Shown: piece after piece, positions 4,539 to 6,546 of the stretch
Position numbering within the stretch: the stretch's first letter is position 1
How the letters are laid out: every line of letters begins with the position of its first letter
NCBI GenBank assembly: GCA_963663895.2
Contig: CAXXRD010000001.1
Span: 448,001-512,000 of the forward strand
DNA: 64,000 nucleotides
Direction of reading: 5' to 3'
Source: Dehalococcoidia bacterium
GTDB lineage: Bacteria > Chloroflexota > Dehalococcoidia > Bin125
The notes under the pieces: model-generated
Databases searched by the model: none
Seen by the model: the letters and a program-made list of their open reading frames with translations, nothing else
What the model was told of the DNA's origin: nothing
Program-made: the position numbers and the translations under genes

Positions 4539-4961
4539 ATGCCGCTCGAACTGACTAACCTGCGGAACTCCCTCCAGTCGCTTACCGACCTGCTGGCCGT
4601 CGCCGAGAACGATGAGCGCATGGAACGCTTGAGCGAGATTGAGCGGAACGGCATTCGCGCCGGCGTCATCCAGAACTTCGAGACTACCTACGAAATCGCC
4701 TGGAAGTTGATCCGGCGCTGGCTGAACACCCACGTTGGCCCCGGCATCGCGGATGGCGTCACGAGGCGTGATCTGTTTCGCCTCGCCGCCGAGAACCGCC
4801 TCATCCTTGATGTCGATCTATGGATGGACCACCACAACGCACGCAACGCCACCTCCCATATCTACGACCAGGAGGAGGCCGAGCAGGTCTACAAGGCGAC
4901 GCTCAATTTCGCGCACGATGCGCAGCGACTGCTGGAGACATTAGAAGCGCGCAATGATTGA
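4539..4961 (+). CDS. HEPN-domain protein (HI0074 nucleotidyltransferase substrate-binding family; HepT-like putative RNase toxin)
   Basis: [23 protein letters not shown] = RX4HXY; own RBS AAAGGA; stop overlaps the next start. Confidence 0.88.
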
Positions 4962-6546
4962 CCTCGCCCCGCGCCACTTGGAAACGGTCAAGGGCATCCT
5001 GGCGGCGCACGTGCCGGGATGCGAGGTGCGGGCCTTTGGCTCCCGCGCGAGTTGGACCGCCAAGGACTATTCCGACCTGGACCTGGCGATCGTCGGTGAA
5101 GAGCCGCTGGACCGGGAAACCCTCAGCCAGTTGCAGGAAGCCTTCGAGGAGTCCGACCTGCCCATGCGGGTAGACGTGCTCGACTGGCACGCCATCTCCG
5201 AAGGCTTTCGGAAGTCGATCACATCGGACTGCGTGGTGGTGCAGGAACCAGCGTCGAGCGTCAACTGGCGCGACGTGATGTTGGGCGATTACGCCAACCT
5301 GACGAAGGGCCTCTCCTACAAGAGTGTGTACTTGAACCAAGACGGTCCCGAACTCTTGGGGCTCGGCCAGTTCGTCCCTGGCGGTGGGGCGAAGCTCGAT
5401 GGCGGGCGGACGTACTCCGGCGAGTATCGAGATAAGGACGTGGCTCGGCCGGGCGATGTCTTGATTGCTATGACCGATCTCACTCAGCGGGGCGACGTTC
5501 TCGGCAGTCCGCTGATAGTGCCTCGGTCGGTTGGCGAATTCTGCCTGTTTACGCTCGATGCTGGAAAGATCGAGCCTTCCGACGGCCTCGATCCCCAGTT
5601 TCTCTACTACGCGCTGCGGAACAAGGACTTCCGGGGATTCGCGGCGGCCCATGCGACCGGGACCACGATTCGGCGGGTCTGGCCCGCCGACGTGCTGTCG
5701 TACGAGTTCCCCCTCCCGCCTCTCGAAGAACAGCGGGCCATCGCCCACGTCCTGGGGACGCTGGACGACAAGATCGAACTGAACCGGCGCATGAACGCAA
5801 CGCTGGAGACGATGGCGCGGGCCGTCTTCAAGGACTGGTTCGTGGACTTCGGCCCGGTCCGCGCCAAGCTGGAGGGACGCGAGCCCTACCTGCCGCCGGA
5901 GGTGTGGTCGCTTTTCCCGGACCGGCTGGTGGATTCGGATCTGGGGGAGATCCCGGAGGGGTGGGAGGTGAAGGCACTCGGAACGTTCGGAGAAATCATA
6001 ACCGGCAAGACCCCAAGCACCAAACGACCAGAGTACTACGGAGAAGATATTCCTTTTCTGCGTATCCCAGATATGCATCGCAAGATGTATGCACTCAAGA
6101 CCGAATTAATGCTTTCAGATCGAGGGGCTGAGTCACAACCCAAAAAGACACTGCCCCCCGGTAGCGTATCAGTAAGCTGTATAGCGACGCCGGGCTTGGT
6201 AGTGCTGAATCATCGTAATACGCAGACTAACCAGCAAATAAACAGCATCGTTCCCTACGACCAATCAGTAAGTAGGTACCTCTATTGGATATGCTGCTAT
6301 TTGTCATCTGATATTGCCACAGGGGGATCGGGCGGTTCGGTGTTCGGAAATATGAACAAGTCAACTTTTAGTGCTCTGCACGCTATTCATCCTGAACGGA
6401 TCGTACTACGTACATTTGATGCCTTAGTATCACCGATTCACACAGCTATACTGGCGAACGAGGAGCAGGTTCATACTCTTGCGGCTCATCGGTCCGCACT
6501 GCTGCCTAAGCTGGTGTCGGGAGAGATGCGAGTTAGGGGTTTCTGA
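4954..6546 (+). CDS. hsdS: Fusion of minimal nucleotidyltransferase (MNT, about aa 1-98) and type I specificity subunit HsdS (two TRDs)
   Basis: [17 protein letters not shown] (GSX10DXD) and VDVLDW; then [27 protein letters not shown] and C-terminal LLPKLVSGE; one uninterrupted frame. Confidence 0.9.

Follow-up and report, generated by a model that had tools for sequence, protein, structure and literature searches.

A candidate HepT/MntA-like toxin-antitoxin pair in mobile type I restriction-modification operons, with the MNT antitoxin domain fused to the HsdS specificity subunit

We describe a type I restriction-modification (R-M) operon in which the gene for a HEPN protein, a predicted RNase toxin, is followed by an open reading frame (ORF) that joins the predicted MNT antitoxin to the specificity subunit HsdS in a single polypeptide. 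The operon lies in a 64,000-nucleotide stretch of the genome of a Dehalococcoidia bacterium (GenBank assembly GCA_963663895.2, contig CAXXRD010000001.1, positions 448,001 to 512,000), hereafter termed the window, to which all positions refer (1-based). Its gene order, taken from the ORF list and family matches, is hsdM, HEPN, MNT::hsdS, cargo, and hsdR. The fusion is genuine and recurs widely, and the HEPN and MNT components very probably constitute a toxin-antitoxin (TA) pair of the HepT/MntA (type VII) kind. As for what the fusion might do, on balance we favor a reading in which the pair resides in a mobile R-M operon and the supply of its antitoxin would be tied to HsdS.

An earlier reading of this DNA from the letters alone (hereafter, the sequence-only reading) had pointed to a HEPN gene with the RX4HXY motif, in the form RNATSHIY, between hsdM and the target recognition domains (TRDs) of HsdS, and such a gene is indeed present at positions 4539 to 4961. 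It begins 17 bp beyond the end of hsdM and runs from an ATG at 4539 to a TGA at 4959 to 4961, encoding 140 amino acids (aa). The product matched the NTase_sub_bind family of Pfam (PF08780; E = 3e-34; 118 bits versus a cutoff of 31.8) and the HI0074 family of NCBIfam (TIGR01987; 78.9 bits versus a cutoff of 55.8), and its matches in the PDB include HI0074 (1jog; E = 3.5e-13) and the HEPN toxin of Legionella pneumophila (8xdj; E = 4e-13). Four residues (M1, R102, H107, and Y109) are invariant in all 36 aligned homologs; the available texts of PMC7641770 and PMC11586414 describe RX4HXY in characterized homologs as furnishing the Arg and His of the RNase and the Tyr that accepts AMP. Pfam detects the HEPN domain alone in these 140 aa, with no ABC-ATPase domain, and a scan of the protein against PADLOC-DB 2.0 matched none of its defense-system families.

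The downstream ORF, which overlaps the HEPN gene by 8 bp, extends from an ATG at 4954 to a TGA at 6544 to 6546 and encodes 530 aa, uninterrupted by a stop. Its N-terminal portion matched PF18765 (E = 1e-9) and PF01909 (E = 3e-7) at residues 10 to 95 and aligned with HI0073 in the PDB (1no5; E = 4e-25 over residues 2 to 103). The spacing of the GSX10DXD motif is exact (G29-S30-x10-D41-x-D43), and G29, S30, D41, D43, and D74 are unchanged in 47 of 47 aligned fusions, as is W105, the first Trp of the HsdS part. The remainder of the polypeptide contains two PF01420 (Methylase_S) matches and matched the PADLOC Specificity_I model over residues 102 to 528 (E = 2e-91); the only PADLOC models recovered by the fusion are those of type I specificity subunits, of which PDLC03138 spans the MNT part (residues 1 to 119). 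An AlphaFold2 model built with the 47 aligned fusions (mean predicted local distance difference test score, 88; predicted template modeling score, 0.76) shows MNT as a compact alpha/beta domain and, after it, an HsdS of canonical form whose long conserved helices occupy residues 257 to 297 and 482 to 522. The C-terminal part thus has the hallmarks of HsdS, namely, two TRDs with conserved helical spacers and hsdM and hsdR in the same operon. The overlap, the exact motif spacing, and the stop-free run into a two-TRD HsdS had all been claimed in the sequence-only reading and were verified in the sequence. Prediction of a complex of two HEPN chains with MNT residues 1 to 104, run without controls, gave a score of 0.00 (mark, 0.32) and was weighed neither way.

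The same reading had noted the lack of an obvious start codon ahead of the first HsdS Trp, and this too holds: Q97, where the MNT fold ends, is separated from W105 (position 5266) by seven codons, GAA CCA GCG TCG AGC GTC AAC, with no ATG, GTG, or TTG among them, and the earliest in-frame GTG (5275) and ATG (5278) lie past the Trp. We considered production of a separate HsdS from an internal start as the normal mode of expression and rejected it, since no start codon occurs between Q97 and W105 and no Met is conserved there in the relatives; initiation at codons 108 to 110 of the fusion is possible on the basis of these codons. The 8-bp overlap of the HEPN gene with the fusion, for its part, suggests that translation of the two may be coupled.

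That the fusion exists as described is supported both by contigs of public runs and by relatives. Three such contigs span both junctions (X1, 4400 to 5787; X2, 4400 to 5779; and X3, 4662 to 5635) and match the window without a single difference or gap; they are assembled Logan contigs, X1 and X2 coming from different samples, all of one study, and the best-covering sample may be the source of the window assembly. A search with residues 1 to 135, which cover MNT and the junction, against 1,225 candidate proteins of 291 to 928 aa yielded 1,026 that match this query at fusion length with E ≤ 1e-3. Among the matches listed, the nucleotidyltransferase family and PF01420 were both found in 118 of 120 and a GSx(9-12)DxD motif in 120 of 120. 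The MNT domain is strongly conserved (50 to 76% identity over the 135-residue query), the linker differs between fusions in length and sequence, and in the alignment the first TRDs are of many unrelated types. Shuffling of TRDs behind a fixed N-terminal domain would produce just such a combination of a constant MNT and diverse first TRDs. A stop lost through an assembly or sequencing error, or a frameshift at the MNT/HsdS junction, would require the same error in the contigs of two samples, which are identical to the window across 4400 to 5787, in hundreds of homologous full-length fusions, and in a finished plasmid from a cultured strain (see below); we therefore regard an artefact as practically out of the question.

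The assignment of the pair as a TA system rests on sequence definitions and on patterns of gene decay. The available text of PMC7641770 defines Class I HEPN/MNT modules as a PF01934 or PF08780 protein with RX4HXY beside a PF01909 protein with GSX10DXD and reports that MntA AMPylates the Tyr of RX4HXY by means of GSX10DXD, blocking the RNase; AMPylation of the L. pneumophila HEPN protein (8xdj) by its MNT has been demonstrated structurally, according to the part of PMC11586414 that was available. The window pair, with PF08780 and RX4HXY on one side and PF01909 and GSX10DXD on the other, agrees with the Class I sequence definition, and the catalytic residues are invariant in its relatives. Moreover, a neighboring MNT with GS..DxD is kept at 75 of the 76 loci whose HEPN gene is of full length (the exception being L214), intact MNT::HsdS stands beside a broken or undetected HEPN gene at L177, L015, L017, and L072, and at five further loci (L076, L077, L079, L171, and L191) HsdS is truncated while MNT is whole. 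An antitoxin tolerated alone and a toxin not so tolerated are the signature of a TA pair. It has also to be considered that the two proteins form a two-subunit nucleotidyltransferase, which HsdS would bring to the DNA or to the R-M complex to modify something else there, be it a subunit, a phage protein, or nucleic acid, with HEPN as the "substrate-binding" subunit. The family names preserve this older view ("nucleotidyltransferase substrate binding protein"), and a tie to a DNA recognition subunit could in principle direct such an enzyme to DNA. However, all 36 aligned homologs retain R102 and H107, for which a subunit that only binds would have no use; close homologs are RNase toxins silenced by AMPylation, as far as the available texts describe them; and the decay pattern fits a toxin and an antitoxin. 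We consider this alternative highly improbable.

We then surveyed the gene neighborhoods of relatives in three sets of 80 loci each, drawn from a one-genome-per-species collection and seeded with the fusion, with free MNT proteins, and with HEPN; as many genomes recur between sets, the three are not independent of each other. The sequence-only reading had proposed a search of genomes for MNT-HsdS fusions with a HEPN gene upstream, and in the fusion-seeded set tblastn located a HEPN gene immediately before the fusion in 77 of 80 loci. The RX4HXY motif is present in the upstream ORF of 67 of these 80 loci, the 8-bp overlap recurs in 53, and 14 more have a 4-bp [A/G/T]TGA overlap; hsdM lies upstream wherever the flank suffices, and hsdR lies downstream in most. 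The MNT-seeded set comprises 38 fusions (35 with hsdM upstream and 3 with too short a flank), 35 free MNTs without a detected HsdS, 3 free MNTs adjoining hsdS, 2 broken fusions, and 2 loci at contig ends. HEPN is upstream of 28 of the 35 free MNTs, and hsdM and hsdR are nearby at only one of them (L109). The HEPN-seeded set contains 44 fused and 30 free pairs, 3 broken loci, 1 contig end, and 2 loci without an adjacent MNT; no cleanly unfused pair beside hsdS was found among these 80. Free and fused related pairs are both toxin first, and a stand-alone pair with the same 8-bp overlap is common. The toxin-first pair therefore exists both as a stand-alone module and as a module embedded in R-M operons, where nearly every copy is fused.

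Two plasmids from cultured bacteria illustrate the fused and unfused states. On pZMOB01 of Zymomonas mobilis ATCC 10988, the gene after hsdM encodes an HI0074-family protein; next come a "restriction endonuclease subunit S" of 527 aa that includes MNT and then hsdR, and the pair bears both motifs (RX4HXY and GSX10DXD). On an Acetobacter ascendens plasmid (accession no. NZ_CP015170.1), HEPN is followed by a 100-aa MNT, by hsdS 12 bp further on, and by hsdR; this unfused arrangement probably resembles the ancestor of the fusion. Among plasmid records, an HI0073-like MNT less than 60% identical to that of the window occurs in Piscirickettsia (73 records) and Acetobacter (23 records), and on several Acetobacter plasmids it stands beside hsdS. 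We also considered the published hsdS deletion on a Z. mobilis ZM4 plasmid (PMC8432527) as a knockout of the fusion and set it aside, because pZM32 carries hsdR-hsdM-hsdS without HEPN or MNT; its HsdS has 420 aa.

The module shows further variation at the positions of both toxin and antitoxin. A second HEPN subtype with the motif RIDTTHDY, about 30% identical to the window HEPN (e.g., L007, L009, L022, and L024), precedes fusions whose MNT is 67 to 77% identical to that of the window, with a 4-bp ATGA overlap. Of the 2 HEPN-seeded loci without an adjacent MNT, L217 is a deletion remnant, whereas at L210 a second, different HEPN gene lies between the first HEPN gene and MNT::HsdS, such that both subtypes stand in tandem ahead of one fusion (L210:3501-4722). 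Either toxins may be exchanged, or a single antitoxin domain may act on two of them. Tandem double MNTs before HsdS or an extra free MNT were observed in P0004, P0042, P0048, and P0063, at L180:3916-4577, and at L034, L066, and L068. The first MNT copy of L180 is degenerate, with an internal stop and loss of DxD, and P0063 (823 aa) also contains PF04480 and PF18741.

The operon is common to at least 10 named phyla, with the HsdM proteins encoded upstream of related fusions being 58 to 83% identical to that of the window and HsdR 53 to 84% identical across loci; judged from these comparisons, it is clearly mobile horizontally between phyla. By phylum, the 80 fusion-seeded loci include 36 from Chloroflexota, 20 from Poribacteria, and 10 from Actinomycetota. 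These relatives (L001 to L080) are overwhelmingly metagenome-assembled genomes of marine-sponge lineages (Poribacteria, Dehalococcoidia/SAR202, Acidimicrobiia, and Caldilineaceae), which suggests extensive horizontal transfer of the operon within sponge communities. A FastTree phylogeny of the MNT domain, comprising 120 fused and 82 free sequences after 38 short proteins (likely truncated fusions or too short) had been dropped, requires 21 changes of the fused state, versus 55 to 74 in 200 label shuffles. On this tree, most fusions evidently belong to one related group with sporadic exceptions.

The HsdS part itself bears marks of exchange. Within 5709 to 6016 and 5969 to 6510, summed metagenome contig depth rises to about 2,300 over the central conserved region of HsdS, and many loose contig ends occur at 5727/5728 and 5975 to 5978, together with joints that skip the second TRD (TRD2). 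This combination of depth and loose ends implies that many hsdS genes in the community share the conserved regions and bear other TRDs. The G+C content drops from about 65% to 47 to 54% over TRD2 and the adjoining DUF2806 gene, that of the source organism being 70%, and this suggests a recent exchange of the TRD2-DUF2806 segment.

The reading that we hold to be, on balance, probable is that the type VII pair couples the R-M operon to its own antidote and so makes the cell addicted to it. By analogy with the characterized homologs, the HEPN dimer would be an RNase that arrests growth, and MNT would silence it by transferring AMP from ATP to Tyr109 of RX4HXY. As MNT forms the N-terminal part of the HsdS chain, whose translation follows that of the toxin, no antitoxin would arise unless HsdS is made; it would be obtainable only through HsdS synthesis, following that of the toxin and probably by coupled translation. 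Being part of HsdS, the antitoxin would moreover track the specificity subunit in amount, lifetime, and location. If hsdS or the whole operon were deleted, disrupted, or silenced, newly made HEPN would stay unmodified and active, and such addiction would stabilize a horizontally mobile R-M unit, especially its hsdS, against loss. Abortive infection upon attack on the enzyme would be conceivable in addition to addiction.

Several observations weigh against the addiction reading or its components. AMPylation is covalent, such that loss of the antitoxin would free only new or de-AMPylated toxin, and no de-AMPylase was evident. The MNT domain falls short of the NCBIfam MntA equivalog (NF047752; 38.1 bits versus a cutoff of 60) and is by sequence a member of the HI0073 branch rather than of the SO_3165 branch. 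The toxin-first order runs counter to the MNT-first order that the accessible sections of PMC3710099 give as usual, the latter being typical of, and not strictly defining for, Class I HEPN/MNT. At L214 a full-length HEPN gene lies beside a truncated MNT, with a HEPN pseudogene at the sister locus L219. Unfused pairs occur inside R-M operons (Acetobacter and L116, L117, and L160), which means that the module can reside in such operons without being fused. A short, variable linker such as this one is what the simple loss of a stop codon would leave, and the abundance of the fusion, most members of which form one related group, may reflect a single successful mobile operon and not repeated selection.

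The last two points lead to a simpler account, namely, that a toxin-first pair was inserted between hsdM and hsdS, that the MNT stop was lost, and that the fusion spread by hitchhiking, with MNT acting as would a free antitoxin and the R-M enzyme and TA pair having no interaction. The raw materials for such a course are at hand: free-standing copies of the pair, overlapping by the same 8 bp, are frequent (35 of 80 MNT-seeded and 30 of 80 HEPN-seeded loci), an unfused arrangement with just 12 bp between MNT and hsdS exists, and the linker is unconserved. Clustering of the fused members on the MNT tree is likewise compatible with few origins, and the operons have clearly been transferred between phyla. 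What makes a purely neutral history unlikely in our estimation is that the fusion has been retained over more than 1,000 clusters at 90% identity and through many TRD exchanges, that reversion to the unfused state inside R-M operons is rare, and that the double-MNT variants (P0004, P0042, P0048, and L180) suggest that the N-terminal position is tolerated or favored.

The sequence-only reading had gone further and proposed a guard function, in which the tethering of MNT would make toxin silencing depend on an intact or DNA-engaged M2S1 or R2M2S1 complex, such that Ocr, ArdA, HsdS turnover, or failure of the enzyme would stop AMPylation and free the RNase, as with PrrC. In its molecular form, the fusion would be an integrity sensor, the AMPylation of each new HEPN chain needing a properly made, assembled, or DNA-engaged methyltransferase core; this we likewise hold to be doubtful. 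The precedents are real: in the available texts of PMC3710099 and PMC3632139, the HEPN RNase PrrC is kept latent by a type Ic R-M enzyme until the T4 peptide Stp sets it free, and links to R-M systems are on record for at least 16 HEPN clades. The predominance of the fused form in R-M operons (38 versus 3 free-adjacent in the MNT-seeded set and 44 versus 0 cleanly unfused in the HEPN-seeded set) and its persistence, with catalytic residues kept, through TRD exchange likewise speak for a guard. However, the HEPN protein, a single domain of 140 aa, is devoid of the ABC-ATPase sensor domain of PrrC and matches no PADLOC defense model, toxin already AMPylated would remain silent after an attack on the enzyme barring turnover or de-AMPylation, and the free pair is just as common outside R-M loci. 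The data are accommodated no less well by a simpler coupling, in the form of addiction to hsdS or the operon, or by a neutral fusion than by the guard mechanism. Thus, the anatomy and family assignments of the earlier interpretation were borne out, while its guard mechanism is plausible and gained no support from the computations; we consider it unlikely.

Comparison with known systems sets the window operon somewhat apart from each of them. HepT/MntA type VII examples include SO_3166/SO_3165 of Shewanella oneidensis, 8XDJ/8XEH of L. pneumophila, and HI0074/HI0073 of Haemophilus influenzae (1JOG and 1NO5); as in these, a PF08780 HEPN with RX4HXY stands beside a PF01909 MNT with GSX10DXD and AMPylation of the motif Tyr is expected. 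Unlike in these, the antitoxin is the N-terminal domain of HsdS and not a free protein, and the pair is toxin first with an 8-bp overlap inside hsdM-...-hsdS-hsdR. PrrC of EcoprrI shares with it the placing of a HEPN RNase gene within a type I hsd operon and the restraint of a suicidal RNase by the R-M enzyme (PMC3710099 and PMC3506569, as far as available). However, PrrC is a large anticodon nuclease in which, as in RloC, an N-terminal ABC-ATPase domain is joined to the HEPN nuclease, and a type Ic enzyme restrains it through protein contact, whereas the restraint of the single-domain HEPN of the window would be enzymatic, through a domain joined to HsdS; the comparison with PrrC drawn in the sequence-only reading is accordingly reduced to one of functional analogy. 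In the single-chain MNT-HEPN protein FhepTA, as in the window, an MNT antitoxin domain lies inside a larger polypeptide, fixing stoichiometry (PMC13000451, available text), but there it is joined to its own toxin, whereas here it is joined to an unrelated immunity protein and the toxin is separate. The A. ascendens operon has the same families in the same order (HEPN, MNT, hsdS, and hsdR), except that its MNT has its own stop codon.

Much of the background is already known, namely, HEPN-MNT AMPylation, the linkage of HEPN to R-M systems, the idea of immunity-suicide coupling, and single-chain MNT-HEPN fusions. The accessible sections of PMC3710099 report HEPN-R-M clustering, the abbreviation "RM_TRD" in a figure legend, and HEPN fusions to nucleases and helicases. 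An MNT-HsdS fusion is not described in the full-text literature as far as it was available, including the available portions of PMC3632139, PMC3506569, PMC2701414, PMC12839542, PMC4621449, PMC13000451, PMC7005997, and PMC7641770; the figures or supplements of PMC3710099 may show it. The architecture is visible in domain databases, and one PADLOC specificity-subunit model includes the MNT part, whereas public annotation calls the fusions plainly "restriction endonuclease subunit S."

The remaining features of the operon are collected in Table 1. The hsdM product matches the Pfam families HsdM_N and N6_Mtase (E = 4e-104) as well as TIGR00497 of NCBIfam, and the hsdR product matches TIGR00348 (E = 2e-169) and contains HSDR_N, SWI2_SNF2, and T1RH-like_C domains. 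Between hsdS and hsdR lie about 5.6 kb of inserted cassettes, the cargo of which (6547 to 12088) is, by family matches, mostly TA-like or defense-like, with DUF433 next to a DUF5615/PIN-like gene, the M78 peptidase gene next to DUF4411, and MazF/PemK next to an RHH antitoxin; in 5 of 80 related loci the fusion is likewise followed by DUF2806. Three copies of the hsdR 5' end are present, at 8101 to 8146 (46 nucleotides), at 9491 to 9674 (184 nucleotides; 93% identity), and at 12193 to 12376 (the real start). They split the stretch between hsdS and hsdR into cassettes, which looks like repeated gain of cargo by recombination at the hsdR 5' end, and extra fragments of the hsdR N terminus were also seen in related loci L006, L067, and L078.

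Table 1. Features of the R-M operon in the 64,000-nucleotide window (hsdM, HEPN, MNT::hsdS, and hsdR lie on the plus strand)
Feature	Position	Strand	Basis
hsdM, type I DNA methyltransferase	2896..4521 (ORF open from 2728; likely start, ATG 2896)	+	HsdM_N + N6_Mtase
HEPN protein, HI0074 family, predicted HepT-like RNase toxin, 140 aa	4539..4961	+	PF08780, TIGR01987, PDB
RX4HXY motif RNATSHIY, HEPN residues 102-109	4842..4865	+	
8-bp overlap ATGATTGA, HEPN stop with fusion start	4954..4961	+	Sequence
MNT domain, predicted adenylyltransferase antitoxin, fusion residues 1-97	4954..5244	+	PF18765/PF01909, HI0073
GSX10DXD catalytic motif, G29 S30 ... D41 L D43	5038..5082	+	Sequence
Linker EPASSVN, residues 98-104	5245..5265	+	No stop or start codon
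HsdS part, residues 105-530: TRD1, central helix 257-297, TRD2, C-terminal helix 482-522	5266..6546	+	
DUF2806	6547-7560		Family match
DUF433	8370-9062		Family match
DUF5615/PIN-like gene	9031-9459		Family match
HTH-ImmA/IrrE M78 peptidase	9754-10971		PADLOC RmrA and capP models also matched
DUF4411	10968-11498		Family match
MazF/PemK	11533-11853	-	Family match
RHH antitoxin, with MazF/PemK	11858-12088	-	Family match
hsdR, restriction/translocase subunit	12172..15342	+	TIGR00348, HSDR_N, SWI2_SNF2, T1RH-like_C

To our knowledge, the mechanism of immunity-suicide coupling has been worked out essentially for PrrC only. Here, a predicted enzymatic antitoxin is encoded as a covalent part of the DNA recognition subunit of an R-M enzyme, in more than 1,000 sequence clusters, and the label "restriction endonuclease subunit S" hides this MNT module. 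If the fusion were an integrity sensor, it would represent a widespread PrrC-like second line of defense derived from a type VII TA pair and would give physical form to the immunity-suicide coupling hypothesis, in that phage anti-restriction proteins, HsdS proteolysis, or loss of the operon would unleash the RNase. Z. mobilis ATCC 10988, with pZMOB01, is a cultured, nonpathogenic, and genetically tractable carrier in which the question of coupling is directly testable. The main value of the fusion would lie in offering a simple, widespread, and tractable case of the physical coupling of an immunity enzyme to an antidote, one that bears on how some type I R-M operons spread and persist so well, for example, among sponge-associated bacteria.

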